Shown: positions 2,309 through 37,700 of the stretch, in pieces
Layout: each line of letters begins with the position of its first letter
Position numbering within the stretch: position 1 is the stretch's first letter
Source of the DNA: a bacterium
Lineage (GTDB): Bacteria; UBP6; JAFGXH01
NCBI GenBank assembly: GCA_016936735.1
Contig: JAFGXH010000321.1
Span: 7,221-71,220 of the forward strand
Length of the DNA: 64,000 nt
Reading direction: 5' to 3'
Notes under the pieces: model-generated
The model's input: the letters and a program-made list of their open reading frames with translations, nothing else
Database searches by the model: none
What the model was told of the DNA's origin: nothing
Translations under genes and position numbers: made by a program

Positions 2309-5300
2309 TTATGATAATCCCATTTGAGCAAGAAAATTTGTTGAATCTGATTGAATCTTACTCAATTGAGCCTCCATTGTTGCAAATTGGTTATAAAGAG
2401 CAGCCTCTTTTTGTTCATTTCTTGTTTGATAATACTCAATCTGCTCATATAAACTTACCAACTCTTTATCAATTGTTCCATTAACAACAGTTGCCTCTTT
2501 TAGTATTCCACCTCTTTTAACATAATCATTGATTTTATTATCAATAACACGAGCAATTCCTGAATCATATTGAGGATTTGTCTCTGAATTATTAGCAAAA
2601 AGACGATAAACCTCATAACTATTCTCTTTTAAATTTGTTAAAAGAGTGTTATTCTCTTTAAGAGTTTTTAATATTGATTCTCTATATTCATCACTATCAA
2701 CACCATCATCTTTTCCAAATAAAAGATAACCAGCTTTAGCATCATCATTAGAACCTGTTGAGGCAACTTTTAAACCAATAACATCTAAAGATGAAAACTC
2801 ATCAGGCATTCCCCCTCTTATACTTGTTACTGCTTGACGCATATATGATCCAAAATCTTGAAATGTTTTCTCTTTAAAAATTATATTATACTCATTATAC
2901 ATTTTAAAATAGGTATTATAATCCTCTATCTCTGTATATGTCATATTATTCATATCATCACTTGAAAGAGGATTTAGATATTTTTTCTGTTCAGAACTTA
3001 ATTTATCTGGATTTAAGCGAGTCATCAAATCATTATATCCAACAACAAAATCTGCTATCTCCTCTAAAACTTTGTCTGTATCAACCTGAATATCAAGTGT
3101 TACATTTGTTTCACTAACTCCATTAAGTTGAAATGACACATCTTTAATAACATCATCAATATCATTTGTTGAGCGAACATAAGAGACTCCATCAACCATG
3201 AAATTGGCATCTTTTCCTGCTACTCCAATCTCCTCATAAAGAGAACTAACACCATATTCAGCAAAAGCAGATGAAGCAACTGTGCCAGAAACATCTGTTA
3301 TCTGAAACTTTCCAGCAATTCCTGCTGTTTCTGATTCAAATTTGATTCCACCTAATCCATCAGCCTGAACAGAGAGACCACTTCCACCAAAATCAAATTT
3401 CCAAGAGATATCATATGCAATACTTAAAGAGTTATATATAGCTGAAGCAGTATCTGATGTGTTATCACTTTGAGTTACTCCACTTCCAAGACCAATTTGA
3501 GATATATCACTACCAGTATCATTAAAAATAGTAAAAGAGGCTGCAGCCCCTCCTGAAGAGTTAAAAAGACGAACTGATTCCCCTTCTCCTCCCAACATTT
3601 TTACCTGAACATTTGTAGAACTTCCTCCAAGAGTTGTCCAATTTGCTGTATTATTCCACTCCCTTATTAAATCATCTTTACTATATATTGTTTTTCCAGA
3701 GTTATTTGTCCATCTATAACCAGTTGAACCATCTGTTCCAGCCATAATAATAAAACTGGTTCCAGAGGTTATTCCCGTTGTAAAATCAAGATCTAAAAGC
3801 TCTGTATAGGCACCAGTTCCATTTGTTGCAGATAATGTGATATCAGTATTCACTCCACTTGCACCAAAATTTATAGTACTACCTGCAAAATTACCACTTA
3901 TTGATGAAAAATCACCATCTAAAGTTGATTTTTTAGAACTAATATTCATAACCTCTAAAAAGTTTGATGTATCATATGATGAACCAATTGTTACTCTTTT
4001 TTGATTTGTATCTACATCTCCCATTTTTGAGTATAGTAGAAATTGGTCTGTACTAGTATCATAAGATGCTATAACTCCTGCAGAGGAGTTATTTATTTTC
4101 TCAATAACTCCATTTAATGAGTCATTTTGATTAACATATATAGAGACTCCATTTATAGAGAATGTTCCATTTGAGACAGTTGCTCCTAAATTTGCTAGAT
4201 ATAAAGCCTTATTTGTATCTATTGAAGAGGTAGATGATGAGTTATAGGCTGTACCACCACTTGATAATGAGAGTTTTGTTGATGTTAAAAAATTTGAGTT
4301 ATCTGAATTAGCTCCTAATGATATTGCACTATTTGTTGTGTTTGAAGTTAACATAAATCTATCATTTATTGAATCATAAGTTGCTGTAACTCCAGCTTTT
4401 GAGCCATTTATCATTGCTAAAGCATCATTCATTGTGATGTTATCAATATCATTCAATGTTATTGCTACATTATTTATTGTGAATGTTGCACTTTTTTTAC
4501 CATCAGCACCAACAACACCTGTAATTGGTGCCTTAATACCACTATTATTCAGACCTGTTGTAAATAGGTTTATAGTTCCTGTTGCAACATCACTCCCCCC
4601 CTGAATTTTAGATTTTGTAATTGGAGTAGGATTAAGTGTTGATGAAATAACAGTTTCAAAACTCCCTTGCTTAAGAGATGATAAAGTTCTTATAGAATAA
4701 CCATTTAAAAAACTATTATTATTCATTGTTGTTCTAAGAGAATCAAAATCTAATGCTGTTATTTTTTTCTGAATAGAGTTTACAGTTTGAGATGTTGTAT
4801 TAGTTAAACCAAGAGCACTATTCGCAAGATCTCCACCACCATCATTATTTATTTTAACATAAGAGTTGCTATCCTCTGCAACATTATAAAAGGATAATGA
4901 GGCATTATTCGAACCATCTGGATTTGATGACTCAAGCATAACATAGGTTTTATTTTCTGTTCCAAAATGTGAATTAAGTTCACTATTTATTTTCTGCTGA
5001 ATCTCATCTGTTACAGAGGAGATTTTACTACTATTTGCTTGATAAAATCCTAACTCTATATCAAATGTATAATCACCATAACTTATATTAAGTCTATTAT
5101 TAGATCTATTGATATTTGTTCCAATAGTCTGTTCTGTTGTTCCCTCTAAAGATGTTCCAGATGTTTTTTGAATAATCCCCTTTTTATCAAGGGTTAATGT
5201 AGAGGTTGCTTCAACATAACTTGATTTATCTTCAAGATCTATTTTATATTTTCCCTCTATATTATATCTTGAGTTTCCATAAACAGAGGATGCTCCAGAT

Positions 5301-5665
5301 GTATTTGTTTCTGTTATAAACTTCATTTTTGATATACTATTTTTTCCCCATGCAGACTCTGCCAACTGTGAAACTCTCATTGAGTATGTTTTTGAAGAGG
5401 CATTTACACCAGCTGAACCAGTTAAAACAGAACTATTTGAACTTGTTGTCTTTTTTGTTTGAAAAGTAGACTCTAATTTTAGCTTTAAAAGTGTCTTCTG
5501 AAATGACTCCATTTGAGAGGAGACACTTTTATAAACATCCTTTTTTAGAGAAACTAATTTTGTTTTATCCTCAAGACGACTTACAGATTGCTTCTCTATT
5601 TTCATCAAATCTGTAATTAATCCTTGAATATCCATTCCAGATGCAAGACCTGTAATTTGAGTCAT
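2309..5665 (-). CDS. fliD: Flagellar filament cap protein FliD (hook-associated protein 2), giant 1118-aa form
   Basis: The N-terminus MTQITGLASGMDIQGLITDLMKIEKQSV and the C-terminus ...YNQFATMEAQLSKIQSDSTNFLAQM match the conserved FliD terminal coiled-coil segments. It has a very long G/S/T/N-rich central region. Gene order fliD-fliS supports the call. Confidence 0.8.
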   Translation of the reverse strand: MTQITGLASGMDIQGLITDLMKIEKQSVSRLEDKTKLVSLKKDVYKSVSSQMESFQKTLLKLKLESTFQTKKTTSSNSSVLTGSAGVNASSKTYSMRVSQLAESAWGKNSISKMKFITETNTSGASSVYGNSRYNIEGKYKIDLEDKSSYVEATSTLTLDKKGIIQKTSGTSLEGTTEQTIGTNINRSNNRLNISYGDYTFDIELGFYQANSSKISSVTDEIQQKINSELNSHFGTENKTYVMLESSNPDGSNNASLSFYNVAEDSNSYVKINNDGGGDLANSALGLTNTTSQTVNSIQKKITALDFDSLRTTMNNNSFLNGYSIRTLSSLKQGSFETVISSTLNPTPITKSKIQGGSDVATGTINLFTTGLNNSGIKAPITGVVGADGKKSATFTINNVAITLNDIDNITMNDALAMINGSKAGVTATYDSINDRFMLTSNTTNSAISLGANSDNSNFLTSTKLSLSSGGTAYNSSSTSSIDTNKALYLANLGATVSNGTFSINGVSIYVNQNDSLNGVIEKINNSSAGVIASYDTSTDQFLLYSKMGDVDTNQKRVTIGSSYDTSNFLEVMNISSKKSTLDGDFSSISGNFAGSTINFGASGVNTDITLSATNGTGAYTELLDLDFTTGITSGTSFIIMAGTDGSTGYRWTNNSGKTIYSKDDLIREWNNTANWTTLGGSSTNVQVKMLGGEGESVRLFNSSGGAAASFTIFNDTGSDISQIGLGSGVTQSDNTSDTASAIYNSLSIAYDISWKFDFGGSGLSVQADGLGGIKFESETAGIAGKFQITDVSGTVASSAFAEYGVSSLYEEIGVAGKDANFMVDGVSYVRSTNDIDDVIKDVSFQLNGVSETNVTLDIQVDTDKVLEEIADFVVGYNDLMTRLNPDKLSSEQKKYLNPLSSDDMNNMTYTEIEDYNTYFKMYNEYNIIFKEKTFQDFGSYMRQAVTSIRGGMPDEFSSLDVIGLKVASTGSNDDAKAGYLLFGKDDGVDSDEYRESILKTLKENNTLLTNLKENSYEVYRLFANNSETNPQYDSGIARVIDNKINDYVKRGGILKEATVVNGTIDKELVSLYEQIEYYQTRNEQKEAALYNQFATMEAQLSKIQSDSTNFLAQMGLS

Positions 5666-7259: not shown

Positions 7260-8222
7260 ATGAGAACCATAATAATATTATTAACAACTCTACTATTATC
7301 ACCTCCTTTAATTTCAGAAGAGATTGTAAAATTTAAATCACCTCAATTTGAAAAAGCAATAAAAATATCATTAAAAAAAGGGAAAAATGATAAAATAACA
7401 AAAGAGGATGTATTAAAAACTAAAATACTTCTTTTAGCTTTTAAAAATTTGAAAACAATTGATGATATATCAATGTTTGAAAATGCTGAAATTGTTTATC
7501 TTCACAAAAATAAAATAGTGGATATATCTCCTTTAAAAAATTTAACAAAAATAAAAGAGCTTGATCTTTTAGGTAATAAAATAGTAGACATATCTCCGCT
7601 TGAGAATCTGATAAATTTAGAGATTCTAAATTTTGCTGAAAATAGAGTTACAGATATAACAAAACTATCAAAATTAGTAAAATTAACTGATCTATATATT
7701 AGCAATAATAAAATAAAAGATATATCAGTTTTAAAATATTTTACAAATCTTAAACAACTATATAGTATAGATAATTTGATAGTCGATATCTCATCTATAG
7801 AGTTTTGTAAAAATTTAGAACAGCTCTATCTTGATAACAATCCTATTAATAATATAACAGCTCTACAAAACTTAAAAAATTTATCTACTTTATCCCTAAA
7901 TAGTAGTAGAGTAGAGGATTTTTCAATAATTAAAGCACTAAAATCTTTAAGAACAGTATATTTGAAAAATCTAAAAATAGATGATATCTCTTTTTTATCT
8001 GAATTTGAACATCTTAACTCAATAAATATTTCAGATAATAATATTGTTGATTTAACTCCACTTAAAAATATAAAGTGGATAGAGTTTTTAGATATCACAA
8101 ACAATAAAGTAAAAGAGTTAACCCCTCTTAAAAACATTCCAGGAATAGATATAATTCATACTAAAGGAAATCCAATAACAGATTTTAGCCCAATTTCTCA
8201 TGCAAATCACATAACAAAATAG
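7260..8222 (+). CDS. Leucine-rich-repeat (internalin-like) secreted protein
   Basis: It has a signal peptide (MRTIIILLTTLLLSPPLISEE), then about twelve 22-residue LRR units of the form I.DISPL.NL.NL..L.L..N.I. Confidence 0.7.
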   Translation: MRTIIILLTTLLLSPPLISEEIVKFKSPQFEKAIKISLKKGKNDKITKEDVLKTKILLLAFKNLKTIDDISMFENAEIVYLHKNKIVDISPLKNLTKIKELDLLGNKIVDISPLENLINLEILNFAENRVTDITKLSKLVKLTDLYISNNKIKDISVLKYFTNLKQLYSIDNLIVDISSIEFCKNLEQLYLDNNPINNITALQNLKNLSTLSLNSSRVEDFSIIKALKSLRTVYLKNLKIDDISFLSEFEHLNSINISDNNIVDLTPLKNIKWIEFLDITNNKVKELTPLKNIPGIDIIHTKGNPITDFSPISHANHITK

Positions 8223-8275
8223 TTTTAATGAAAATAAATTTAACAAAAAAATTTAATAAAATCTAAGATAAACTA

Positions 8276-9073
8276 TTATTTAAAGTCTGAGAATTTTGAG
8301 GCTTTAAGGTAGTTGGCAATCACTTCATAAATATTTGATATATCTTTAAAAGTGTTATTTTTTAAAAAATTAATGTGTTTTTCAACAATAGAAAAATCAC
8401 CTCTTGAGACAGGACCAGTTAGATTTTGAAGGGGAGTTTCTGAATTTTTAATATTCTCTGTTGCATCCTCTAAAAGTGGTATTACAGATTTTATATCTCC
8501 ATTTGGAATTAATTTTAAGGCAATATCCATAACAGCATGAATATAATTATTTGCAAAAATAGAGGCAATATGATATAGCATCTTCTCATCTTTTTTTATA
8601 ATCTGGTAGTTTTTGGTAATATAGTTTAAAATAGGTGTTGCAATAGATATACTATTATCATCACCCTCAACTGTGAAATAGTGAGACTCTATTTTTTTTA
8701 TTGATAGCTCAATATCATCTGTAAAACTCATCATTGGATGCAATGAGATAGAGTAGTTATTATCTGTTTTTAAAACACTTGATAATATTGTACCAGATGT
8801 ATTTATCAATAACTTTCCACTTAAATCAATACTCTTTAAACACTCAAAAAGACTCTCTATCTGAGTATCTTTTACTGAAACCAATATTATATCACTTTTG
8901 ATATCTTTTATATCAAAACTAATATTTGAATTAAGCCAATAATTAGAAATCTCTATATTTTTATCTGAATTTAGAATAACTAAATCTAGATTAATATGTT
9001 TTTTTAAAAGAAAAGCTAATGGAATTCCAACTTTTCCTGCTCCTATCAATGAAAAAGATACATTATTCATCAC
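8276..9073 (-). CDS. Rossmann-fold NAD(P)-binding protein with a DUF2520-like C-terminal domain
   Basis: The N-terminus is SLIGAGKVGIPLAFLL, a GxGxxG dinucleotide-binding motif. The C-terminus has LTGPVSRGDFSIVEKH, the GP..RGD motif typical of DUF2520. Its start codon overlaps the stop of the upstream gene by 1 nt. Confidence 0.5.
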   Translation of the reverse strand: MMNNVSFSLIGAGKVGIPLAFLLKKHINLDLVILNSDKNIEISNYWLNSNISFDIKDIKSDIILVSVKDTQIESLFECLKSIDLSGKLLINTSGTILSSVLKTDNNYSISLHPMMSFTDDIELSIKKIESHYFTVEGDDNSISIATPILNYITKNYQIIKKDEKMLYHIASIFANNYIHAVMDIALKLIPNGDIKSVIPLLEDATENIKNSETPLQNLTGPVSRGDFSIVEKHINFLKNNTFKDISNIYEVIANYLKASKFSDFK

Positions 9074-10677
9074 TACTCTAAAACCTCATCTGTAAACTCT
9101 GGTGATATCCATAAATCAATATCACTTTTTTTATCAATTATAACCTTTTTATTATCATTAATTGTTGATGATAACATATCAAAATAGAGTATTTTTTTTA
9201 TCACTCTTTTATATTTTTGAAAATTTTCAAAAATTTTTGATTGAGAATAAAACTCCCCTTCTGCCCTTTTTATTTTATCATTTTTATCAATCTCTGCTTC
9301 ACCTATTTTTTGGTAAGACTCAATAGATGCCATTGATAATAGGATTGTTTTATAGTTCTTGGCTTTATTCAGTTGTTCAATCTGTTCTTGATTTGTAGCA
9401 ACTAAATCCTCAAAAGCCTCTGCAACATCTTTTGGTGGATGAACATCTTTTAAATATAAAGATATAATCTCAATACCACTATCAATCTCACTCATTTTCT
9501 CTTTTATCTGCTTCTCAATTAATTTGATAACTTTATCCCTATTCTCTAAAATAATATCATTAAAACTAGTAGCTAGATATATTTTTGTTATTTCAGAATT
9601 AATTGCATCTGTTATAATCTCAACATGATCCTTAAAATTTAAAAAATATTTTTTAGGGTTACCAATCCTATATTCCAAAATAAAATATGGTAATACGAAA
9701 TTATCATCTCCTGTAATCATCATAGTTGGATTGCCATGCTGTTGAGCCCAAATTAAAGGACCATTCCCTATATTTCCAATCTCTATTTTATTAATAATAC
9801 CTGTTTGAATATATACAATTTTATCAATAGGGGTTGGATATTTAAAATAGATTCCTGAAGAGTTCACAGAGATAATTTTACCAAATCTTAGTTGAAGAGC
9901 AGTAAAACCATACTCCACTTTATAAAAAATATTCATAATAAGAGCTATCATCATAAATATTAAAAAGGATATAATAACCCTTTTTTTACTAATATTTATT
10001 TTCTCAAAAATGGATGTAATAAACCATCTCTTTTGAAAAACATCTAAAAGAGAGTCTCTATCAGCCTTTAATGCTGAAATAGTATTAATAAATAGTTGAA
10101 AAGAGAATGATAGTATTACAAATGCTAAAAAAGCGGCAGAATACCTATCAATATTAATTCCCCTACTATATAAAATAAGAGTAAACCCTGTTATTAAAGA
10201 GGTTATCATATCTGTTTTTGAGTGCATACTATCTGCTTTTAGTGCAGGAGAACTCTCTTTTTCTCCAACAATCTGTTGAAATTTAAAAAGAAAATAGGAT
10301 GTAAAAGAGAATATAATAAACAGAATTCCAGTAAATAGAGCACCTTTAATTATCATTTTATTATAGTAAAAAACCTGATAAAATATTGACAACGATATAT
10401 ATGATAGAAAAACTGAGATTAACAATGCTGAAATCAACTCAGGTTTTTTACTTTTTGTTTTAGAAGAGAGTTGTATTGCAATAAAAACAAAAAAGGTTGT
10501 AGCAAAATCACTAAAACCATGCCAAGCCTCTGTGTATGCTGTTAAACTTCCTGAGATAAAATAGACTAAAAATTTACCTGCTGTTACTAAAATAACAATT
10601 ATTATTGATATAAGTGATGTTTTTTGAGATAATGTCATATTCTGTCCTTTTATAGCAAAATTATGGAGATATAACAA
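9073..10677 (-). CDS. Membrane protein fusing a cation-diffusion-facilitator-like 6-TM domain to an SPFH/band-7 (HflK/HflC-like) domain
   Basis: Two HxxxD motifs (AWHGFSD and MHSKTDM) sit in hydrophobic helices, as in CDF transmembrane helices TM2 and TM5. There is an extra TM helix (ISFLIFMMIALIMNIFY). Then VEYGFTALQLRFGKIISV...YLKDVHPPKDVAEAFEDLVATNQEQIEQL is a typical prohibitin-homology domain followed by a coiled coil. Confidence 0.55.
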   Translation of the reverse strand: MLYLHNFAIKGQNMTLSQKTSLISIIIVILVTAGKFLVYFISGSLTAYTEAWHGFSDFATTFFVFIAIQLSSKTKSKKPELISALLISVFLSYISLSIFYQVFYYNKMIIKGALFTGILFIIFSFTSYFLFKFQQIVGEKESSPALKADSMHSKTDMITSLITGFTLILYSRGINIDRYSAAFLAFVILSFSFQLFINTISALKADRDSLLDVFQKRWFITSIFEKINISKKRVIISFLIFMMIALIMNIFYKVEYGFTALQLRFGKIISVNSSGIYFKYPTPIDKIVYIQTGIINKIEIGNIGNGPLIWAQQHGNPTMMITGDDNFVLPYFILEYRIGNPKKYFLNFKDHVEIITDAINSEITKIYLATSFNDIILENRDKVIKLIEKQIKEKMSEIDSGIEIISLYLKDVHPPKDVAEAFEDLVATNQEQIEQLNKAKNYKTILLSMASIESYQKIGEAEIDKNDKIKRAEGEFYSQSKIFENFQKYKRVIKKILYFDMLSSTINDNKKVIIDKKSDIDLWISPEFTDEVLE

Positions 10678-10834
10678 TTTTAATAGATTTTATTCTAAAA
10701 TCTATTTTTCCATAAAGTTATAAACTATAAATTATAACAATACAAATAAAAATTTTTATCTGGTTATAAAATAGTTACCAATTTAATTATTTAAGAAAGT
10801 TCTTTGATTTTAATGAGATATTTTTGTATTGTAA

Positions 10835-12340
10835 TTAGAATTTAATAATTAAGAAAGATGAGAGAGAATAAGCTATTTCAGCACTAAAATCTTTATTGTC
10901 TTCAGAATCATCACCATTTCGCTCTTTATTGCTTCCAAGCCAATCCATACCAGCACCAGGAATAAAAAGTCCTGCAGCAATACCAAAGTTAATTCCATCT
11001 GAAGTAACATATTGTACTTGTAGATCAAACTCTAATCCAAGATATGGATCTCTACCAAATGTAGCCTCATTTTTTAATGCCTGTGTATATACACTCCAAA
11101 AATCTAATGTTATTGTTGGATGAATATTATATGTAACATGAGGTTTAACATAAAATAGATCTGTAAGAATACCAATCTGTTTTAAAAAGATTAAATCAAC
11201 TTGATAATCTGGAGCAAATCTAAAATTACCACTTGGAAGTGCTGAACCATTAAATACAGTATTGTAAGTATCATAATCCTCATCACCAGATGCAACACCA
11301 GCATCAATACCAAACTTTAAAGTGTTTGCTAAAAATGATAGATTGGTTTCAATAGCACCACCCCATTTATTAAAACTGCTACCATTATCATCTCCTGTTA
11401 TCCAAACTAACTCAGATTTTATAGAGAAGAATCTTCCAGAGTAAAAAGATAAAAATGCATCAAGAGTATAAGCAGAGTAGTCATCTGAATTATAGTTGTC
11501 AATAGCCTCTGATGTTGATGGATCAACTGTTTGATAGATATTATCTCTACTTCCATAAGAGGCAAATATACCCCATTCAAAAAGATTTTTACCACTTTTA
11601 AGATACTCATCTCTTTTTTCACTATCCATCTCATCTCTAAGAGTTAAAACCCATTCAGTTTTATCATCTAAATCCTCTCTATCATAATTTAAAGATGAGC
11701 TATAGTTTGAGGGATTTTGACCTGGAAAACTTTCCGAAACCTCATATGATAAAGAGGCTTTAAAATTTGGTAATAGAACCTCTATTGGATTTGTCTCAAA
11801 ATATAGTTGATCTATATAGCTTCCATAGTTTGCTTGAGTTGATTTTCCATCATTTCTAAATATTCCAAGCCCCCAATTAGTTGCAACTCTACCAAGTTTT
11901 ACTTTTCCAAAAGGGGTTTTTAATATAGCATAACCCTCTTTTACAGCTAGTTTATCCCCTTTTACATCTGTACCAAAAAGTGAATTATCAAACACATCAA
12001 GAGTAAAGATAGATTGAACATACTCTCCAACATTCAAAATAGGAGAGAATCTAAATCTTGTATTATATGAGATTACACTATCATCAAGAGGTTTTCCTTT
12101 ATGAACCTCATTAAGTGTTGGAAGATATTGAGATGAACCATATATTTGGCCACTATTTACATCTCTATTCCAAGCATTTAAATCAAAATTATCTCTATAA
12201 AAATATTGAAATCTAAAATATCCATCAAAAGAGAGATATTTTGTAGTCTCCTTTTTAAAAAGGAGTAAATCTGAATCTGTTGTCTCAACTGAAAACAGAA
12301 TTGTTGGTAAAATTAACAGAAATAATAGATATTTTTTCAT
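10835..12340 (-). CDS. Outer-membrane beta-barrel protein (putative porin or export channel)
   Basis: It has a signal peptide (MKKYLLFLLILPTILFSVETT), about 480 aa with an alternating beta-strand pattern, and a C-terminal ...SFLIIKF with terminal Phe. Confidence 0.5.
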   Translation of the reverse strand: MKKYLLFLLILPTILFSVETTDSDLLLFKKETTKYLSFDGYFRFQYFYRDNFDLNAWNRDVNSGQIYGSSQYLPTLNEVHKGKPLDDSVISYNTRFRFSPILNVGEYVQSIFTLDVFDNSLFGTDVKGDKLAVKEGYAILKTPFGKVKLGRVATNWGLGIFRNDGKSTQANYGSYIDQLYFETNPIEVLLPNFKASLSYEVSESFPGQNPSNYSSSLNYDREDLDDKTEWVLTLRDEMDSEKRDEYLKSGKNLFEWGIFASYGSRDNIYQTVDPSTSEAIDNYNSDDYSAYTLDAFLSFYSGRFFSIKSELVWITGDDNGSSFNKWGGAIETNLSFLANTLKFGIDAGVASGDEDYDTYNTVFNGSALPSGNFRFAPDYQVDLIFLKQIGILTDLFYVKPHVTYNIHPTITLDFWSVYTQALKNEATFGRDPYLGLEFDLQVQYVTSDGINFGIAAGLFIPGAGMDWLGSNKERNGDDSEDNKDFSAEIAYSLSSFLIIKF

Positions 12341-12367
12341 AAAAATCTCCAGAAATTAGCAGAGCTT

Positions 12368-12784
12368 CTACTCTATTGCCATTTTTTGATTTAACTCAAT
12401 TAGGTGACCACAATTTTTAGGATGAAGAAAAACTATTTTTGTATTATGAATACCATCTGTTGGTTTTTCATTTATAAAATTAGCCCCCATCTCTTTATAA
12501 TATAATACTGCAGCCTCAATATCAAAAACTTCATAACAGATATGATGAATTCCCTCACCTTTTTTTTCAATATATTTAGCAATTGGTGACTCTGGTGAAG
12601 TTGGTTCTAATAACTCTATTTTAACACCATTTTGAATAAAAATAGCTGTTTTAATTTTTTGAGATTCAACTGTTTCATATCCCATAAACTCCATTTGAAA
12701 TATATCTTTATAAAAATGGTAGGAGCGTTCTAAATTAGATACAGCAAAAGCAACATGGTCAACCTTTTTAATAAAATTATCCAT
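12368..12784 (-). CDS. Methylmalonyl-CoA epimerase / VOC (glyoxalase-fold) family enzyme
   Basis: The motifs DHVAFAV, VKIELLEP, GEGIHHICYEV, IVFLHPK and GHLIELNQ match methylmalonyl-CoA epimerase conserved blocks. Confidence 0.7.
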   Translation of the reverse strand: MDNFIKKVDHVAFAVSNLERSYHFYKDIFQMEFMGYETVESQKIKTAIFIQNGVKIELLEPTSPESPIAKYIEKKGEGIHHICYEVFDIEAAVLYYKEMGANFINEKPTDGIHNTKIVFLHPKNCGHLIELNQKMAIE

Positions 12785-12976
12785 AAAAACCTCAAAACAG
12801 TAAAGAGTTGGATTTTATCATAAGAGATAACTAAAAACAATAGTTTTATAACAAAAAAATAGCAATTTAATTTCAGTAGATTTATTAATAAATTTACTAT
12901 TTAAAGCTATTTTTTCATCAATGAATAGAATTATAAAGTATTTTAAAATAGTGTTTTTTGGAAATAAAATAGTTTA

Positions 12977-15925
12977 TTAAATAATATTCAACTCTTTTTT
13001 CAATCTTCTAACATTTGATAATTTAAGCTGCATATTATAGTTTTCATAAATTGTTTCTGCCTGAAGAAGAAGTTTTTTAGCTTTACTTTTCTTCCCTTTA
13101 CCAAAAAGATATTGAGCATAAGAGATATTTGTTTGTGCCATCAATGGTTCAGATACTTTTCTTAATATATCAGAGCTTTGAAGATAGTAGTTTTCTGCTG
13201 GCTCAACTCCATCATTATCATCTCTGGCTGTATTAAAAATAGTTTCAGCCTCAATATCTCCAAAAATACATAAAACTCTACCTTTAACTTGATTATCTCC
13301 TATCTCTGCACCTAAATCCAAAGCCTGATTTAAAAATATTTTAGCTTTTTGCACCTCTCTTTGTTTAAAAGAGAGTTCTCCAAGATTTAGATAGTTATGA
13401 GCTAAAATTCTTTTATTAGATGTTTCTAATGCAATCTCTAGAGCATTTTTAATATAATCCTCCGCCTTATTCAGTTGATTATTTTCTAAAAGAAGCTCTC
13501 CTAAATTATTAAGACATATTGCTTGGAATTTAACATCACCAATCTCTTCTGCTATTGTTAAAGATTTCATCCATAATGCTTTTGCCTGTGCATCATCCCC
13601 TTTATTATAAGTGAGTGTTGCCATATTATTTAAAGAAGCCATTTCACCTTTTCTATCTTTATTCTCTTTTCTAAGTTTATAAGCCTCTAATAAATACTCC
13701 TCTGCCTCTTTAACAAATCCCTGAGAATAGTATAAAAGACCAATATTATTAAGAGATAATGCTATTGAAATTGTATCATTTAGTTTTTTTCTTATCTCTA
13801 AAGATGTCATATAACGTTGAAGTGCTTTATCAAAAAGCCCCTTTTGCCAATATAAACGTCCCATATCATCTTGAGTTGATGCAATTCCTCTTCTATCTCT
13901 TCCCATATTAAAATAATCATAAGCCTGTTGTAGATATCTTTCAGCCTTTTCATGTTCACCCTGATCTCTACAAATTCTACCAATTTTATTATATGCAGCA
14001 CCAACTTTATTATAATGGATTATTATTATAGCTAACTGTGCCATCTGTTTAAATGATTGAATTGAGGGCTCTATTTTTCCAATAAGATTATATAATGAAC
14101 CTAAATTATGAAGAATCTCTATTCTAAAAAGAGCATTCTCTTGAGGTAAGATTTTAAGAGCCTCTTCATAATACTCAATTGCCTTTCTATTTGCATATCT
14201 CTCTTCAGCTCTCTCTCCAGCCATAAAAAAATATTTAGCTGCCTTATAAAACTCTCCTGCATTTTTATATTGATGTGATATTAACTCAATAAATACCTCA
14301 ACAGATGTATCTGATTTTGATTCAAGATATTGAGCAAGATAGTTATGATATAGTTTTCTATCATTTTCGGGAATAGAGTTATAAAGATACTGTTGCTCAC
14401 TATCATGATTAAATCTAAACTCCTGCTCTTTTCTTGCATTTCCTGAAGTCTGTTTTATTATAATTCCACTATTTATAAGTGTGTCAAGTGTAAAATCTAT
14501 TTTTTCAACAAGGTCTGAAACCATCCATAAAGATTTTTTCTCTGGATTTTTAATGATTGTTAAATCAACATTTATTAAAACCTGAAGATAGTTTTTATAA
14601 AACACTTTTCCTGCAATAGATGCCAATTGTAAAAGAATATATTGAAAGGGATCAATTCTATCAAATTTTGCCTGAATTCTCTCCTCTATTGTAGTAGGAA
14701 TTTTCACTCTTCTTAGTGCCTGTTCATCTAACTCTGTAACTTTTCCTTTTTTTTGAACCAATACATTTGAATCCATAAAGTATTTAATACTCTCTTCAAT
14801 ATGAAAAGGTAGTCCTTTTGTATTTTTTGCAATCATATCTAATGTTTGGGAATCTATTTTAGGAATCTCTTTTAAAATCTCTTTTATCATTGTAAAGGTA
14901 TCATTCATACTTAAGGATTGAAGTTGAATATAATATCTTCTAAAAGACTCCCCTTTTAAAAAGCGTTGGATTCTATCTTGTGGTTCTGATGTCATTATAA
15001 ATATTATATTTTTAAAGTTTGGAAGAGATAGAAAATACTCAATCATATCCATTGAGCGAATATCAGAGTTATGAATATCTTTTATTGCAATAATAAGAGA
15101 TTTTTTAGATGTATATTGACTAAAAAGATGTCTAAAACTTCTTTTTAAAATTCTATCAAAAGACATAATATCCATTTTTTCAATCTCTTCAGAGCTTTTA
15201 AGTTTTAAAAGACGATGAAAAACCCCCTTTAATTCGTGATAAAGATGAAATGGAGTGTTCTCTTTTAAAAATATTTTTAATTTTTGTATCTGAATCTCTT
15301 TTAAATCATTTTCAGATATTTTTCCCATTTTTTGAAGAATTGATTTAAAAATAGAGTAATCCTCATTTTTTGAGTTTAATTTAGCCTGTAACTCAATTCT
15401 AAAAGAGTCATTCTCTCTTAATTTACTAAAAAACTCAGATATAAATCTAGTTTTACCAACACCAGCCTCACCAACAATTGTTATTGAGCAGGCCTGTGTA
15501 TTTATTTTTGCCTCTTGATAAATCTGCCTTAAATTAAAAATCTCTGAATCTCTACCAATAAGCCTACTAGACATCCCTTTTGATTCAAAAACAGGTTTTG
15601 AATCATCTATTTGAACATCTTTTATTATTTCATCAATACTACTCTCTAAATAATCATTATCTTTTATTAATGGATTCTTTTTTTTTATTGATAAATCCTC
15701 TTCAAAAATTAACTCACTTACATCTAATTGATATGTTAAATCATCATTTCTATAAATGGGTTCTTCATTTGAGGAGTTGATTAAACTTTGTAACTCCGTT
15801 TCAAACTCATTTTCACTCTCATTTGGATCTGGGTCAATATCTAAAATATATTGACATTTTGGACAGATATAAAAATCATACTCCTCTTTGTGATTACAGT
15901 TAGGACAAATCATCAAAACCTCCAA
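12977..15925 (-). CDS. Zinc-ribbon / P-loop NTPase (AAA_16/STAND-like) / TPR-repeat protein
   Basis: The N-terminus has CPNCNHKEEYDFYICPKCQY, a double zinc ribbon. There is a Walker A motif, ITIVGEAGVGKTRFISEF. The C-terminal ~450 aa are stacked TPR units (for example AICLNNLGELLLENNQLNKAEDYIKNALEIA). Confidence 0.6.
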   Translation of the reverse strand: MEVLMICPNCNHKEEYDFYICPKCQYILDIDPDPNESENEFETELQSLINSSNEEPIYRNDDLTYQLDVSELIFEEDLSIKKKNPLIKDNDYLESSIDEIIKDVQIDDSKPVFESKGMSSRLIGRDSEIFNLRQIYQEAKINTQACSITIVGEAGVGKTRFISEFFSKLRENDSFRIELQAKLNSKNEDYSIFKSILQKMGKISENDLKEIQIQKLKIFLKENTPFHLYHELKGVFHRLLKLKSSEEIEKMDIMSFDRILKRSFRHLFSQYTSKKSLIIAIKDIHNSDIRSMDMIEYFLSLPNFKNIIFIMTSEPQDRIQRFLKGESFRRYYIQLQSLSMNDTFTMIKEILKEIPKIDSQTLDMIAKNTKGLPFHIEESIKYFMDSNVLVQKKGKVTELDEQALRRVKIPTTIEERIQAKFDRIDPFQYILLQLASIAGKVFYKNYLQVLINVDLTIIKNPEKKSLWMVSDLVEKIDFTLDTLINSGIIIKQTSGNARKEQEFRFNHDSEQQYLYNSIPENDRKLYHNYLAQYLESKSDTSVEVFIELISHQYKNAGEFYKAAKYFFMAGERAEERYANRKAIEYYEEALKILPQENALFRIEILHNLGSLYNLIGKIEPSIQSFKQMAQLAIIIIHYNKVGAAYNKIGRICRDQGEHEKAERYLQQAYDYFNMGRDRRGIASTQDDMGRLYWQKGLFDKALQRYMTSLEIRKKLNDTISIALSLNNIGLLYYSQGFVKEAEEYLLEAYKLRKENKDRKGEMASLNNMATLTYNKGDDAQAKALWMKSLTIAEEIGDVKFQAICLNNLGELLLENNQLNKAEDYIKNALEIALETSNKRILAHNYLNLGELSFKQREVQKAKIFLNQALDLGAEIGDNQVKGRVLCIFGDIEAETIFNTARDDNDGVEPAENYYLQSSDILRKVSEPLMAQTNISYAQYLFGKGKKSKAKKLLLQAETIYENYNMQLKLSNVRRLKKELNII

Positions 15926-29665: not shown

Positions 29666-32600
29666 TTAAAGAATCTCATCCTCAGAACGAACAACCTCCA
29701 TCTCTAATCTGGAGTAGTTTTGAATACCAGTTCCAGCAGGAATTAAACGTCCCATAATAACATTCTCTTTTAATCCCATAAGGTAATCGATTTTACCATG
29801 AATAGCTGCTTCTGTGAGAACTTTAGTTGTCTCTTGGAAAGATGCAGCAGAGATAAAAGACTCTGTTGTTAATGCAGCACGGCTAATACCTAAAAGAAGC
29901 GGTTTTGCAGTTGCTGGTCTTTTACGAAGTTTGAGAAGCTTCATTTTCTCATCTTCAAATCTAAAGCGGTCAATATTCTCTTCACTTAAGAAAACGCTAT
30001 CTCCAGCATGAATAATCTGAACTTTTTTAAGCATTTGGCGAACAATAACCTCAATGTGTTTATCATTGATTGCAACACCCTGGCTACGATAAACTTTCTG
30101 GATCTCTTTTACAAGAAATTTAGAAAGCTCTTTTTCACCCTTAATTTTAAGAATATCATGTGGGTTAATATCCCCTTCAGTAATACGCTCTCCAGCACGA
30201 ATATAGTCACCATCTTTTACAACAGTCTCTTTTGTACGTGGAATCTCATACTGTTTCTCTTTACCAACTTCAGGTTTGATTTTAATTCTAACTTTTGTTT
30301 TAGTTGCAGTTCCAAACTCAACAATACCATCAATTTCAGATACAAGTGCAGTATCTTTTGGTTTTCTAGCTTCAAAAAGCTCTTCAACTCTAGGAAGACC
30401 AGCAACAATATCCTCATTTTTACGCTGTGTTTTGGTTTTACTTGCTAAAACAGTTCCAGGCTCTATTTTCTGACCATCTCTTATAGCAGCAGCAATACCA
30501 AAATCTTTTGTAAGATGGTAAACCGCAATCTCCTCTCTATCTTTTGTGGATCTAACTGTAATTGGTTGACCAAACTCATCAACTATAGCAATTGCAGGTT
30601 TAAACTCCTTTTTACCTTTATGTTCAATAATTCTTTTAATAGTACTTTCATGTCCTGTTTTTGCTTTACTTTGAGAAACCTCCTCTTTGTAAGTAACATC
30701 TTGTACTAAATCCATAAATTTTACAGTTCCACCAACCTCAGATATAATAACTTTGGAGTGTGGATCTTTTTGTAGAATTTTTGAATTTTTAAGAACCTCT
30801 TGAGCATCTTTTACAAATATTTTTGAACCATACTCAACATTAATAACCTCTTTTTCACGACCATTTTTATCAATAAGTCTAAGATTACCATTACGAGTAA
30901 CAACAACATCAACACCATCTTTATCTTTAATTGTTGATATACGGTCAAAAACAACTTTACCTTCAACTTTAGAGAGATATTCAAGTTCTGAAGCAGAACC
31001 AGATGCAACCCCTCCTTGATGGAATACACGCATTGTTAACTGTGTTCCTGGCTCTCCAATTGATTGAGCAGCAATAACTCCAATTGCTTCACCAATATTA
31101 ACCTGCTCTCCTCTTGCAAGATCTCTACCATAACATTTACGGCAAACACCTTTTCTTGATTTACAAGTTAGAACAGATCTAATTCTTACAGTCTCAATAC
31201 CTGCCTCTAAAATATCATCAATAACTTTCTCATTAATCTCTTCACCTTTTGGAACAATAACTCTTCCATCAGATGTAACAACATCATCTAATGCTGTACG
31301 ACCAAGTATTCTATCAATAAATAGTTCCTGTTTTTCAGCATTGTTTTTACCCTCAATCTCATCAATATCCACCTCAAGACCAACAATTGTACCACAATCA
31401 TAAGATGTAACAATAGCATCATGAGCAACATCAACAAGTTTTCTTGTTAAATAACCAGATGAAGCTGTTTTAAGAGCTGTATCTGAAAGACCTTTTCTAG
31501 CACCATGTGTTGAAATAAAATACTCTGACACAGACAAACCTTCACGAAAGTTTGCTTTAATTGGTGTTGGAATAATATCTCCATTAGGTTTAGTCATAAG
31601 ACCACGCATCCCTGATACCTGTTTAATCTGGCTATCAGAACCACGAGCTCCAGAGTCTTTCATAATATAGATTGGATTTAAACTATCCTCCTCTTTTACA
31701 ACAGAGAATCCATATTTATCAACAGTTTTAACATTCACTTTACTAATGTATTTTGTAATAGCATTAGATACTCTTTCTGTTGTTTTTTCCCAAAGCTCTT
31801 TTACTCTATTAATTTTTTCATCTTCAGAGAGAAGTTCATTTGCAACCTGCTCATCAAACTCCTCAATTTTATGTTGAGCCTCTTCAAGAATAGATTTTTT
31901 TGCTTCAGGAATAATCATATCATTGATATTAACAGAGATTCCAGAAAGTGTTGCCTGTCTAAAACCAAGATCTTTAATTTTATCAGCAAAAATAACAGTT
32001 GCCTTAGGTCCAACCTCAATAAAACATTTATGAAGTAGTTTTGTAATCTCTTTTTTACCTAAAACTTTATTTATATCCATAAATCTTAATCCTCTTCCTT
32101 CAAATTCAGGATCAGATTTTTTAGGAGTAATTTGCCAAAACAGAATTCTACCAGGAGTTGTATCCTCAAGTTTTCCCTCTATTCTAACTTTAACTTTAGC
32201 ATGAATATCAACTTTATCATACTCAAGAGCCATTACTGCCTCTTCAGGAGATGAGAATACCATTCCTCCATTCTCTCTAAAAAGACCAAGCTCAATTTGA
32301 GCAGGAGTTAATAGTGATTTTTTACCATTTGAAACAACTGGTAAAAGAGTATCTCCTTGAATTTTTTCATATTCAAATCTATTTTGTTGAGACAATTTAT
32401 ATACACAATATGCCTCTTTTAATGATGAAAATTGAAAATCTTTCTTTCCAAGTTTTTTTAAATCAACATCAACTCCAAGAGATTTAAGTGCATCTTTTGA
32501 TGTTAAACCAGCCTCCTCATTCTCTTTTAAATCAAGATTAGGAATATCAGGTAACCAACCACCACCTTTACGAAAATATCTCTCTCTTGTTATATAGTAT

Positions 32601-34666
32601 AAACCAAGTACAATATCTTGATGTGGAGATATAATTGGTTTTCCACTTGCAGGAGAAAGAATATTGTTTGTAGACATCATCAATACTCTTGCCTCAATTT
32701 GAGCCTCAATTGATAAAGGAAGATGTACAGCCATCTGGTCACCATCAAAGTCCGCATTAAATGCAACACAAACAAGAGGATGAAGCTGAATAGATTTACT
32801 TTCAACTAAAATTGGTTCAAATGCCTGAATACCAAGTCTATGAAGAGTTGGAGCACGGTTTAGTAATACTGGATGCTCTTTTACAATATCTTCAAGAACT
32901 TCAAATACTACCTCTTCCTGATCTTCAACTTTTTTCTTAGCTGATTTTACATTAGTAACTAAACCTCTTTCTATCAATTTGTTGAAAATAAATGGTTTAA
33001 ATAACTCAAGAGCCATTTTTTTAGGTAAACCACATTGATGTAATTTTAAATCTGGACCAATTGTAATAACTGAACGACCAGAGTAGTCAACACGTTTTCC
33101 TAATAGATGTTGACGAAAACGTCCCTGTTTTCCTTTTAAAGACTCTGTAAGAGATTTTAATGGGCGACCATTATTTGATTTTGCAGGTTTTGTCATTGAT
33201 GAGTTATCAAAAAGAGCATCAACAGCCTCTTGAAGCATTCTTTTCTCATTTCTAACAATGATAGATGGAGCTCCAATATCAATAAGTTTTTTTAAACGAT
33301 TATTTCTTGTAATAATACGACGATATAGATCATTTAAATCACTTGTTGCAAAACGTCCACCCTCAAGAGGAACTAATGGTCTTAAATCTGGAGGAAGAAC
33401 AGGAATAACATTTAAAATCATCCACTCTGCTTTGTTTTCTGATATATAAAAAGCCTCAACAATTTTGAGTCTTTGTGAATATTTTTTCTTTTTTGTTTCA
33501 GATGTCTCTTTTTTTAGTTGTATACGAAGAATATCTGAGAGACTTTTTAAATCAATTCTTTCTAATAAGGCACTTAGTGATTCAGCACCTCTATCTGCAG
33601 AAAATGTATCAAAAAACTTTTTAAGCATTGAGAAACCTGTTTCTGCTTCAAAAAGCTTGGTTTCACCAATTAATGCAAGATATTCATCTTTATTTAACCA
33701 ATCACCAACTGATGGAAGAGATATAGTTTCTACTCCCTTAATATCTTGTACTGTTGTTACACAATAAACCTCTCCAAAAAGGAGATCTACAAGATAGGAT
33801 GGATTGATAAAGTTTGATGGTAGATGTGAAAAATCTGAATCATAAAGATACTCTTTTCCCTCTAAATCACAAAAACTATCAATAAGAGCATTGAGATATT
33901 TTCTATTTTTATAAAAATCACCTAATTTCTCTCTTAAGAAATTTAATGCAGTTTCACCAGTTTCTGCACCAATTGATCGATTATCCATAAACTCTTCAAG
34001 TGTTATAAGGGAACACTCTTTAAAATCATCATTTCCCCTTGTAACAACATAAAGTTTTCTATTTTTAATATCAGATAATCTCTCCTCTGGAATATTTAAA
34101 AAAATTTGAGGAAGTGTGTCTGTTAATAATTGATATGCCTCTTCGGTCATAATCAATCCCTCTTTCATCACATCATCTCTATAAAGACCTGTAAATCCAG
34201 GATTTACAACAGCATAAAAATCCTCAAACAAAAGTTTACTCATCTCAACATGAGTATAATTTAGTAGGTAACCGATTTTACTTGGAGAACGAAAAAACCA
34301 AGGATGAATTACAGGACTTGCCAATTCAATATGACCAATCCAATTTCTTCTTACTGAAGAACTTGTAATTTTTACACCACATTTCTCACAAGTTAGCCCC
34401 TCATATTTTCTTTTTTTATATTTTCCACATAAACAGGTATAATCTTTTACTGGACCAAATATTTTTGCACAAAAAAGGCCATCTGGTTCAGGTTTATGTG
34501 TTCTATAATTGATTGTTTCAGGTTTTTTAACCTCTCCATTTGAGTGATCTCTGATATCATCAGGAGAGGTTAGAGAGATTCTTAGTGCAGTATAGTTTTT
34601 ATCATTAATCTCTTTTTTTATATTGTTGGTTCCAAAAAAAACGTCGTTCAAGCTTCCTCCAATCAA
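29666..34666 (-). CDS. rpoC: DNA-directed RNA polymerase subunit beta-prime (1666 aa, with lineage-specific insertions)
   Basis: It has the zinc-binding [28 protein letters not shown] (the catalytic DFDGD) and a trigger loop/bridge helix. It lies downstream of rpoB. Confidence 0.97.
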
Positions 34667-34738: not shown

Positions 34739-37700
34739 TCAATCGATAATGGTTCCCAGCTTTTCACGACGAAGCTCTTCATAACGATTGATACTCTCAT
34801 CATCGAGTTTCTCAATTTTTAAACAAAGAGCCTCAAGTTCTTTTAATAAAACATTAAAGGCCTCCGGGGTACCTGCACGAAGAACATTGTCACCCTTAAC
34901 AATAGCTTCATACATACGGTCTCTACCATTAATATCATCAGATTTAACAGTTAAAAACTCTTGAAGAATATAAGCCGCACCATATGCCTCTAGAGCCCAA
35001 ACCTCCATCTCTCCAAGACGTTGGCCTCCAAATTGAGCTTTACCTCCAAGAGGTTGTTGAGTAACAAGAGAGTATGGTCCTGTTGAACGAGCATGTATTT
35101 TTTCATCAACTAAGTGATGTAGTTTTAGAATATACATAACACCAACAGTAACCTCTTGGTCAAATGGCTCTCCTGATTGACCATCAAAAAGAATAGTTCT
35201 TCCATTTTCAGGAAGATCAGCAAGAATTAGTTTTTTTCTAATTCCCTCCTCTGTGATTCCATCAAACACAGGGTTAGCAAAAAATAGACCAGTTTTATGT
35301 TTTTCAACAAAAAGCTCTAAATTATCCTTATTTAAAGCATCAACATAAACTTTCTCTTCAGGTTTATCATATATTTGATAAAGAAACTCTTTAATCTCTT
35401 CAAGAGATCTTTTTTCTTGATACATTTTATAAAGTTTCTCTCCAAGACCTTTTGCAGCCCAACCAAGATGAACCTCTAAAATCTGGCCAATATTCATACG
35501 TGATGGAACACCAAGAGGATTTAAAACCATCTCAACAGGAGTACCATCTGGTAAATATGGAAGATCCTCCTCTGCAAGAATACGAGATACAACCCCTTTA
35601 TTACCATGACGTCCAGACATTTTATCACCAACCTGTAGTTTTCTTTTAATAGCTAAAATAACTTTAACCATTTTTCTAACTCCAGGTGTAAGCTCATCCC
35701 CTTTAGAGAGAGTCTCTATTTTCTTTTTATACATTTGATCAATGTATTTCACTTTTTTAGATAGATTACTAATAATAGCTTTTAGTTTTTTATTAACAGA
35801 GGAGTCCTCTACTTTAACATCACTATAAAGCTCTTCATTTAAAAGTGCAAAATTATCTTTTGTATATGAATCACCTTTTGCAATTATTTTTCTTCCATCT
35901 TTAGAAAATAGTGTTTCAGATGCAACTTTTCCAACAACAAGCTCCTCAATACGAGCATAAGCATTTTTCTTAATAATTCTTTTTTGGTCATTTGCATCTT
36001 TTTTAAGACGTTGTTCCTCCTCATTCTCTATTAAAATAGAGCGAGCATCTTTTTCAACACCTTTTCTTGTAAATATTTTAACATCAATAACAGTACCAGA
36101 TATACCAGTAGATACTCTTAATGATGTATCCTTCACTTCATCAGCTTTACTTCCAAAAATAGCTCTTAACAATCTCTCTTCTGGAGTTAATTGTTGCTCT
36201 GCTCTTGGAGTAATTTTACCAACAAGAATATCATCCTGCTTTACTTTTGAACCAATTCGGATAATACCACTCTCATCAAGTTTTGAAAGCTTATCCTCTT
36301 TAGCACCAGGAACATCTCGTGTAATAGTCTCTGCACCAAGTTTTACATCTCTTGCAAAAACCTCCTCCTCTTCAATGTGAATAGAGGTAAAAATATCATT
36401 TTTAACAACTTTTTCAGAGATAAGAATTGCATCCTCATAGTTGTAACCATTCCAAGGCATAAAGGCAACAACTATATTACGACCAAGGGCAATCTCACCC
36501 ATATCGGTTGCAGGTCCATCAGCAAGAACATCACCTTTATTAATTCTATCACCTTTATGAACAACAGGAAGCTGATTAATACAGGTGTTCTGATTTGAAC
36601 GACGATATTTTGATAAATTATAAATATCAGCCTCTGTCTCTTCAATATCCTCTGTTGCATCTGCTCTTACAACAATTCTATTTGCATCAACATACTCAAC
36701 AACACCAGATCTACGGGCAATAACAACCATACCAGAGTCTTTTCCAACATGAACCTCCATACCAGTTCCAATAAAAGGAGCCTCTGTATGAAGAAGAGGA
36801 ACAGCCTGACGTTGCATATTAGAACCCATTAAAGCACGGTTTGCATCATCATGTTGTAAAAATGGAATCATTGATGCAGCAACAGAAACCATTTGGTATG
36901 TTGAAATATCCATTATCTCAACATCAGATGGTTTAACATAAACAAAATCACCATCTTTTCTTGCATAAACATAATCATATGTTATTTTTTGATTTTCATC
37001 AAATTTTACTTTAGCTTGAGCTATAATTTTTCCAGACTCTTCAAGAGCAGAAAAATAGTGGAGTTTATTTGTTATAACTCCGTTTTCAACCATACGATAT
37101 GGACTTTCAAGAAAGCCATAATCATTAATCTCAGCAAAAACAGCTAAAGAGGATATAAGACCAATATTTTGTCCCTCTGGTGTTTCAATAGGACAGATTC
37201 TTCCATAGTGAGTTGCATGAACGTCACGAACCTCATAACCTGCACGCTCTCTTTTTAAACCTGATGGTCCAAGAGCAGATAATCTTCTTTTATGAGTAAT
37301 TTCAGAAAGAGGATTTGTCTGATCCATAAATTGAGAAAGCTGAGATGAACCAAAAAACTCATTTAATGTTGCATGTAATGGTTTTGGATTAATTAGTTCA
37401 TGAGGATTAACAAGCTCAATATCAGAAGATGATACCATTTTATCCTCAATTGCTTTGATGATTTTGAGAAAACCTTTTTTAAACTCAAGTTCAACTAACT
37501 CACCAACAGCACGAACTCTTCTATTTGAAAGATGATCTATATCATCAACAATAGCTCCATTTAAACCATTATTTTTAATATCAATAAGATATTTTAAAGA
37601 CTCTATTATATCCTCTTTTGTTAAAGTTTTCTTGGTAAAAAAGAAAGCCTCTTCCATTAAAAGATATGTAAATCTCTCTTTTGCCTCTTCACTATCAAAC

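Follow-up and report, generated by a model that had tools for sequence, protein, structure and literature searches.

A CDF-type transmembrane domain fused to an HflK-like SPFH domain: a rare, phylogenetically wide and unnamed protein family encoded with hflC and hflK

The window analysed here is a stretch of 64,000 nucleotides from a bacterium of the GTDB lineage UBP6 (JAFGXH01; GenBank assembly GCA_016936735.1, contig JAFGXH010000321.1, positions 7,221 to 71,220 of the forward strand), and all coordinates below are those of the window. One of its genes, on the minus strand, encodes a protein in which the six-helix transmembrane (TM) domain of a cation diffusion facilitator (CDF), a metal transporter, continues into an HflK-like SPFH (Band_7) domain. 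Each half is a genuine member of its fold. The fusion is not confined to this genome; it belongs to a rare, phylogenetically wide and recurrent family without a name of its own, and the conserved genetic unit of this family is fusion-hflC-hflK. We suggest, with moderate confidence, that the fusion is an HflK paralogue in which the N-terminal cytoplasmic tail has been swapped for a CDF transmembrane domain, and that a metal/H+ antiporter module is thereby placed in an HflK/C-type cage. The gene and its parts are listed here, with residues in the numbering of the 521-residue product and the corresponding numbers of a longer, 534-residue reading in brackets.

9073..10638, minus strand: coding sequence of the CDF-HflK-like fusion, 521 residues, start codon ATG at 10638, stop codon TAG at 9075..9073
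10066..10638, minus strand: CDF (Cation_efflux) transmembrane domain of six helices, residues 1-191, from PF01545, the YiiP match and AlphaFold2
10507..10521, minus strand: HxxxD of TM2, metal site A, in the motif AWHGFSD, H40/D44 (H53/D57)
10210..10233, minus strand: DxxHxxxD of TM5 in the motif KADSMHSKTDM, D136/H139/D143 (D149/H152/D156)
9934..10065, minus strand: basic cytoplasmic linker, residues 192-217, and TM7, residues 218-235, from AlphaFold2; TM7 is the equivalent of the single membrane anchor of HflK
9439..9933, minus strand: SPFH (Band_7) domain, HflK-like and predicted to be periplasmic, from PF01145, TIGR01933, 7vhp_E and the Foldseek matches 9cz2/7vhq
9076..9438, minus strand: long coiled-coil helix, residues 403-494, and HflK-type C-terminal tail, from AlphaFold2 and the HflK profile match, which extends to chain residue 348

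A preliminary description of the window, made from the sequence alone, had assigned the fusion to a 534-residue product of 9073..10677. This mechanically called open reading frame is present, counted from a TTG at 10677, but the TTG has no ribosome-binding site, while the ATG at 10638 has the Shine-Dalgarno sequence AAGGA at 10649..10645, 6 nucleotides upstream. The fusion product is 100% identical to an NCBI protein of 521 residues (MBN2695384.1, "cation transporter [bacterium]"). Because of the AAGGA before the ATG and the length of this identical protein, the gene was taken as 9073..10638, and the ATG at 10638 is most likely its start codon. The numbering of the longer reading equals the 521-residue numbering plus 13.

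Both domains are found by Pfam, well above their cut-offs. Cation_efflux (PF01545) matches residues 22-203 with E=6.3e-14 and 52.6 bits (gathering cut-off 26.6) and covers profile positions 2-197 of 198. Band_7 (PF01145) matches residues 253-441 with E=6e-19 and 69.2 bits (cut-off 23.6). Chance can account for neither match. The fusion of a CDF-type core to an SPFH domain, as proposed in the preliminary description, is hence borne out. NCBIfam contains no dedicated family model for this combination. When a profile built from 15 family members was searched against the PDB sequences, it matched E. coli HflK (7vhp_E) over chain residues 82-348 with E=1.5e-43 and YiiP/FieF with E about 3e-8, while a search with the fusion as a single sequence gave E=0.003 for the CDF part.

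The predicted structure agrees with this division. In the AlphaFold2 model the CDF helices span residues 3-29, 32-61, 65-91, 100-128, 131-158 and 164-191, and they are followed by a poorly ordered, basic linker, by TM7 (218-235), by an alpha/beta SPFH domain (238-400) and by one helix of about 90 residues (403-494). Foldseek comparison with the PDB aligned about 200 residues of the N-terminal half to YiiP, with a root mean square deviation of 2.5-3.3 Å, and matched the C-terminal half to HflK chains, with E about 1e-12. The model contains the seventh helix, SPFH domain and coiled coil that had been described after the six-helix core, and Foldseek agrees with both fold assignments. In known SPFH assemblies the coiled coil is the oligomerisation region. 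In E. coli, HflK/HflC form an SPFH cage with FtsH inside (PDB 7vhp, 7wi3, 9cz2), and from TM7 on the fusion resembles HflK in its helix, SPFH domain, coiled coil and tail. In contrast, the N-terminal region of HflK before chain residue 82 is replaced by the six-helix CDF domain.

The CDF half has the six-TM fold of the YiiP/FieF-type (SLC30-type) metal/H+ antiporters (PDB 5vrf, 8f6e, 3h90), with the site-A positions on TM2 and TM5 and the Glu before TM3. In YiiP, however, the transmembrane domain is followed by a cytoplasmic C-terminal domain that holds site C and the dimer contact, and this domain is missing from the fusion. No match to ZT_dimer (PF16916), the model of this metallochaperone-like domain, was found in the fusion and the alignment to YiiP stops at about chain residue 211. 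In the AlphaFold2 model TM6 leads into the linker, TM7 and the SPFH domain instead, i.e., the C-terminus is predicted to run on into a seventh helix and a periplasmic domain. The preliminary description had contrasted the fusion with canonical CDF transporters, which end in a cytoplasmic domain, and this holds; TM7 and the HflK-like region stand in its place. A residue-level alignment also showed no counterpart of the YiiP site-B loop.

Transport site A is much better preserved. In the alignment to Shewanella YiiP (534-residue numbering here and in the conservation counts), H53/D57 fall on D47/D51 and H152/D156 on H155/D159, i.e., the two HxxxD motifs that had been proposed as the metal site of TM2 and TM5 align residue for residue with site A. 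The site differs from that of YiiP in having H-D rather than D-D on TM2. Among 85 aligned family members, whose overall identity is only 25-45%, H53 and D57 are each conserved in 83, E80, a Glu at the start of TM3, in 84, and D149, H152 and D156 in all 85. To judge from these alignments, the family has kept an intact tetrahedral transport site, with one H-D pair on TM2 and one on TM5, and hardly varies in it.

A Kyte-Doolittle scan missed TM2 and TM5, which contain the polar metal ligands, and the topology was instead derived from the AlphaFold2 helices and the YiiP alignment. On these helix boundaries the predicted cytoplasmic segments contain about 17 Lys and Arg residues, versus 4 in the outside loops. 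The predicted topology has the N-terminus inside, six CDF helices, the basic linker in the cytoplasm, TM7 directed outwards and the SPFH domain and coiled coil in the periplasm. The periplasmic placement follows from the CDF topology, in which TM6 ends in the cytoplasm, and from the distribution of Lys and Arg. The SPFH domains of HflK and HflC are also periplasmic (PMC12005517).

The architecture is widely distributed. A word-indexed search returned 16 clusters carrying both Pfam domains. When a single genome of each GTDB species was scanned by pattern and tblastn, 87 relatives came up, of which 80, each spanning nearly the whole query, were kept. The fusion is hence found at 80 or more genomic loci from more than 10 phyla. 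The hosts are Desulfobacterota, Planctomycetota, Spirochaetales, Verrucomicrobiota/PVC, Hydrogenedentota, Muiribacteriota, Acidobacteriota, Gemmatimonadota, Eisenbacteria, Fermentibacteria, SAR324 and others, and they include one cultured organism, Desulfobacter curvatus DSM 3379 (WP_020586992.1). An exhaustive HMMER search with a profile of the CDF half against 1.84 billion representatives at 50% identity gave 111 matches at E<=1e-30 and 1444 at E<=1e-10. Among the best 150 matches, 112 are full fusions with a length of 500 residues or more. Since most of the shorter ones are truncated fusions, and since an ordinary CDF with a C-terminal domain is first met among the shorter matches at about E=1e-25, this CDF clade appears to be essentially always fused.

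It is also clear from this recurrence that the fusion is real. In principle, an assembly or frameshift error could have merged an adjacent CDF gene and hflK, and the window does appear to come from a metagenome-assembled genome (MAG) of an uncultured "[bacterium]". However, the same continuous architecture at 80 loci, one of them in the isolate D. curvatus, and in 112 of the best 150 cluster representatives refutes an artefact, and at the junction there is neither a CDF C-terminal domain nor a separate start. We give it practically no weight.

The preliminary description had called the architecture unrecognised. In one sense this stands: the family is unnamed, literature searches on fusions of CDF or cation efflux domains with SPFH or HflK domains found no published description, and it is absent from a 2009 census of the SPFH proteins of prokaryotes. 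It is, however, not a one-off but recurrent and present in the databases, although neither common nor annotated with more than generic names. Members are called "cation transporter" (WP_020586992.1, MBN2695384.1), "protease modulator HflK family protein" or "hypothetical protein", and the label depends on which half scores higher.

The genes next to the fusion reveal its probable partners. Hidden Markov models of the two downstream genes were scanned over 90 related loci. At 81 of these, two Band_7 genes come after the fusion, the first of about 295 residues and the second of about 320 residues. The contig ends at most 260 nucleotides past the fusion gene at four loci, and in or after the first partner gene at three. 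At the remaining two (L001 and L011, from the sister species of the window, where the fusion is 76% identical), a DUF2520 gene follows. An HflC-type gene is thus directly downstream of the fusion at 84 of the 90 loci. The first partner is HflC by NCBIfam, with 171-175 bits against an equivalog cut-off of 134. The second partner is HflK by NCBIfam (cut-off 159); it passes the cut-off in D. curvatus with 178 bits and scores 152 bits in L004. Because this arrangement is present at 81 of the 90 loci and no other flanking gene family occurs at more than 9 of the 83 non-redundant loci, fusion-hflC-hflK is the conserved genetic unit of the family. Like E. coli HflK/HflC, the family members are encoded beside HflC (above the NCBI cut-off) and HflK, but the operon contains three SPFH genes and not two.

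Two genomes contain two complete fusion-hflC-hflK operons each, one from the Desulfobulbaceae (L021 and L029, CAXXDG010000003.1) and the other a Desulfobacter chromosome (L058 and L063, OY762069.1). These could be paralogous systems for different metals or conditions.

In the window itself the operon is not seen, and a different gene lies downstream.

8276..9073, minus strand: Rossmann + DUF2520 gene, packed against the fusion gene, with the junction TAGTGATG

The preliminary description had assigned this gene a Rossmann and a DUF2520 domain and an ATGA-type overlap with the fusion gene, and had taken the two genes as a functional unit. The domains are confirmed: the product matches DUF2520 (PF10728) with E=9.5e-25, has the N-terminal GxGxxG motif IGAGKVG and resembles PDB 3d1l, a "putative NADP oxidoreductase", over residues 6-252 with E=5.5e-10. 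The overlap is not of the ATGA type. The junction reads GAG TAG TG ATG, so that either TAG and GTG overlap by 1 nucleotide or the ATG lies 2 nucleotides past the stop codon. The two genes are probably co-transcribed. A scan for sigma-70 promoters and terminators over 7900..12900 found 44 promoter-like sites, versus 35.6 expected, and no terminators, and is uninformative at 26-29% GC.

The functional unit is not upheld. In such a unit the fusion and the oxidoreductase would act together, for example in redox-linked metal handling, and the tightly packed stop and start codons and the repeated adjacency in the sister species (L001/L011) would fit this. Beyond the window and these two loci, however, the adjacency is absent: at the 88 others hflC and hflK come next or the contig ends, and the Pfam context of seven more distant family members is without DUF2520. 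The PDB relatives of the DUF2520 protein are structural-genomics entries and, to our knowledge, DUF2520 proteins have no link to metals. A rearrangement that scattered the operon explains the adjacency best, and joint action of the two proteins seems highly improbable. The DUF2520 gene is best explained as a chance neighbour outside the system, a by-product of the break-up of the operon.

There is no other SPFH gene within the window, and in this lineage, unlike in E. coli, the genes are unlinked. In the nearest clade, whose fusions are 43-45% identical (P0003 and P0006, loci L004 and L002), the operon is intact. With the HflC-type protein from the nearest operon-bearing clade as query, MBN2695146.1 ("protease modulator HflC [bacterium]") was found at 63% identity, with an accession number that differs by 238 from MBN2695384.1, the fusion protein of the window. 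An orthologue of MBN2695146.1, 86% identical, is present on CCZJPT010000163.1 and DYRY01000176.1, from the two assemblies that contain the sister fusion, where hflC stands alone upstream of a Pterin_bind gene. With the HflK-type query the match was MBN2693534.1, which is 49% identical and, as the other two proteins are, a "[bacterium]" entry; its orthologue, 84% identical, is on a third contig in each assembly (CCZJPT010000009.1 and DYRY01000039.1). The sister species thus retains fusion, hflC and hflK on three separate contigs, and the MAG of the window very probably keeps all three genes separated likewise. Loss of the HflC and HflK partners in the window lineage was also considered and is rejected, both being retained at other loci. 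The most parsimonious account of these comparisons is a dispersal of the operon over three loci in the clade of the window.

One of the sister records, L011 (DYRY01000027.1), is titled "Anaeromyxobacter dehalogenans". The contigs L091-L093 of the same and the sister assembly have about 28% GC, while Anaeromyxobacter has a high GC content; hence the public entry seems to be taxonomically mislabelled.

After the loss of linkage the fusion gene is still under purifying selection. Between the window and the sister species, at an overall synonymous divergence (dS) of about 0.8, the ratio of nonsynonymous to synonymous substitution rates (dN/dS) is 0.10 in the CDF domain (86% amino acid identity), 0.18 in the SPFH domain (71.5%) and 0.18 in the coiled coil and C-terminus (78.6%). 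The linker and TM7 evolve fastest, with a dN/dS of 0.69 and 41% identity. Thus, no part of the protein is as strongly constrained as the CDF half. Between the same two species the fusion as a whole (76% identity) is more diverged than HflC (86%) or HflK (84%), and the change lies mostly in the linker and TM7.

This constraint bears on whether the CDF-like helices do anything at all. They could be a captured and functionally decayed anchor of an ordinary HflK paralogue, for which the missing CDF C-terminal domain, the low single-sequence score against the PDB (E=0.003) and a score under the cut-off of the NCBIfam CDF model TIGR01297 would speak. However, each of the four metal ligands is retained by 83-85 of the 85 members, across more than 10 phyla, the CDF part is the best conserved one in the comparison with the sister species, and the Pfam score is twice the gathering threshold. 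A decayed anchor is, in our opinion, very unlikely.

We return to the suggestion of an HflK paralogue that carries an antiporter. HflK/C forms a cage around FtsH (PMC12005517). The fusion would co-assemble with HflC and HflK into a ring or vault of the HflK/C type, in which it would occupy HflK positions. Some of the wall subunits would then carry a divalent-metal/H+ antiporter module, and the CDF modules would lie against the wall of the ring. The cage would fix the position of the antiporter and, possibly together with FtsH, would probably gate it or control how active it is, its dimerisation or its turnover. The preliminary description had proposed a metal transporter that is scaffolded or regulated, and this is still the best reading, but the gene partners of the family are HflC and a second HflK and not the DUF2520 protein.

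The proposal can be taken further, although here we consider it unlikely. The fusion, HflC and HflK could form a vault with antiporter subunits in its wall and with the client covalently wired in. This would be a metal-handling membrane micro-compartment that exports Fe2+ or Zn2+ to the periplasmic space or membrane patch within the cage, or one that couples the metal status to FtsH-dependent proteolysis.

Alternatively, the CDF domain could be a metal sensor. Here it would bind metal at site A and signal via TM7 to the SPFH ring, so that the opening of the cage or the access of FtsH becomes metal-dependent. The fusion lacks the C-terminal domain and the site-B loop of canonical CDF transporters, its CDF domain is covalently attached to a scaffold of the protease-modulator type with HflC and HflK as operon partners, and the conservation of site A fits binding as well as transport. 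The phenotypes of E. coli HflKC also involve iron and Fe-S proteins (PMC12005517). However, the whole six-helix fold is kept, the Glu of TM3 and the extra Asp of TM5 included, at a dN/dS of 0.10, and a sensor would need less than this. Furthermore, no purely sensory CDF transmembrane domain is known to us, and a linkage to ftsH was seen neither among the large open reading frames of the window nor among the operon neighbours. A sensor thus appears improbable, if less so than a decayed anchor.

If the module is an antiporter, its substrate would most likely be Fe2+ or Zn2+. Among the NCBI named CDF models, MamB/MamM match the CDF half best (E=1e-17), followed by FieF (E=1e-13), while ZitB reaches only 2e-4. 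The MamB/MamM models match all of the 11 members tested and ZitB 4 of them. MamB and MamM, the Fe2+ CDF proteins of the magnetosome, are still distant from the fusion, which scores about 35-45 bits against their equivalog cut-off of 350; they have a C-terminal domain and no SPFH domain, and no magnetosome genes lie near the fusion. Iron-related genes stand beside the operon at 19 of 83 loci, in several phyla: FeoB at 7, a DtxR-like repressor at 5, a NifU/NUBPL-type ATPase at 7 and CbiA-Fer4/Nitro_FeMo-Co at 5. The FeoB gene (for example at L019, L024, L032, L034, L038 and L043) is often divergent and often accompanied by the gene of the DtxR-like repressor. In the sister species the distance from FeoB to the relocated hflK (loci L094/L095) is about 5 kb. 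The FeoB and DtxR neighbours are a possible link to iron homeostasis. A universal iron-gene neighbourhood was considered and dropped, the count being just 19 of 83. On the other side, an H-D/H-D site is classically of the zinc type. The iron neighbours are suggestive only, and we name Fe2+ or Zn2+ with low confidence in either.

Several observations weigh against an active antiporter held in an HflK/C-type cage. First, both NCBIfam models place the fusion under their thresholds: it scores 75.4 bits against the CDF model TIGR01297 (trusted cut-off 82.35) and 123 bits against the HflK model TIGR01933 (curated cut-off 159.4). The D. curvatus orthologue scores 100.6 bits against the latter. Because both HflK scores fall under this cut-off, the fusion is to be classified by sequence as an HflK-like paralogue and not as the HflK equivalog. 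Second, CDF proteins act as dimers, normally via the cytoplasmic C-terminal domain, and because this domain and the site-B loop are absent, the activity could be altered or lost. Third, the AlphaFold2 model, with a mean predicted local distance difference test score (pLDDT) of 73.8 and a predicted template modelling score (pTM) of 0.53, is of moderate confidence only, and as a monomer it is silent on oligomers. Fourth, no ftsH was found among the large open reading frames of the window that were scanned, and no neighbour family of the size of FtsH recurs across the loci flanking the operon. Further, MBN2695146.1 and MBN2693534.1 are placed in the MAG of the window by accession proximity and by the sister species, not by the assembly itself. 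Finally, the substrate call is weak with a zinc-type site, and the iron-gene neighbourhood is found at only 23% of the loci; several of them belong to Desulfobacterota that are related to one another, so that there are few independent events.

SPFH oligomers with polytopic membrane partners are known from other systems. Stomatin with aquaporin-1 (PDB 9zd2) and the SPFH-NfeD pair QmcA-YbbJ (PDB 8z5g) were both among the Foldseek matches. In these the association is non-covalent, while the presumed client of the fusion is covalently attached and its SPFH domain is predicted to be periplasmic as in HflK.

Other genes of the window were also inspected. Two of them lie upstream of the fusion, and their order is kept in the sister species, with no evident link to the fusion gene. 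The first, 10835..12340 (minus strand), belongs to the TIGR04551 family by a match of 194.5 bits, under the cut-off of 300, and has a weak match to Alginate_exp; its signal-peptide-like N-terminus suggests an outer-membrane barrel. The second, 12368..12784 (minus strand), encodes a glyoxalase-fold protein. A leucine-rich-repeat protein of 320 residues with a hydrophobic, signal-peptide-like N-terminus is encoded at 7260..8222 (plus strand), and a protein of 982 residues at 12977..15925 (minus strand) combines a Cys-rich N-terminus containing CxxC pairs with AAA_16 and TPR domains and resembles STAND proteins. Three further proteins are of unusual length. The flagellar cap protein FliD (2309..5665, minus strand) has 1118 residues, which seems unusually long, with about 700 of them between the FliD_N and FliD_C matches. 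RpoB (34739..39574, minus strand) has 1611 residues, and a large insertion splits Rpb2_1 over residues 26-729. Likewise, RpoC (29666..34666, minus strand) has 1666 residues, with a large insertion that splits Rpb1_5 over residues 1043-1563.

A second type of transporter joined to an HflK-like domain was met in a protein from a Joint Genome Institute (JGI) metagenome. P0018, of 737 residues, has an ArsP_1 permease domain (PF03773, residues 15-328, E=6e-42) followed by an HflK-like Band_7 domain at residues 417-613. It suggests that polytopic transporter domains have been joined to HflK-type scaffolds more than once, and that there may be a wider, unrecognised class of SPFH systems with a transporter in the cage.

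How the SPFH cages (HflK/C, prohibitin, stomatin, flotillin) affect the membrane proteins they enclose is a long-standing question, and their clients are hard to identify. The fusion described here is a genetically defined pair of scaffold and presumed client, directly testable and with a cultured host in Desulfobacter curvatus DSM 3379. It may thus give a direct view of the contents of such membrane cages. For annotation, the family merits a name of its own. If our reading is true, a CDF domain would here be working, or sensing, without the cytoplasmic domain that is thought to drive dimerisation and regulation.

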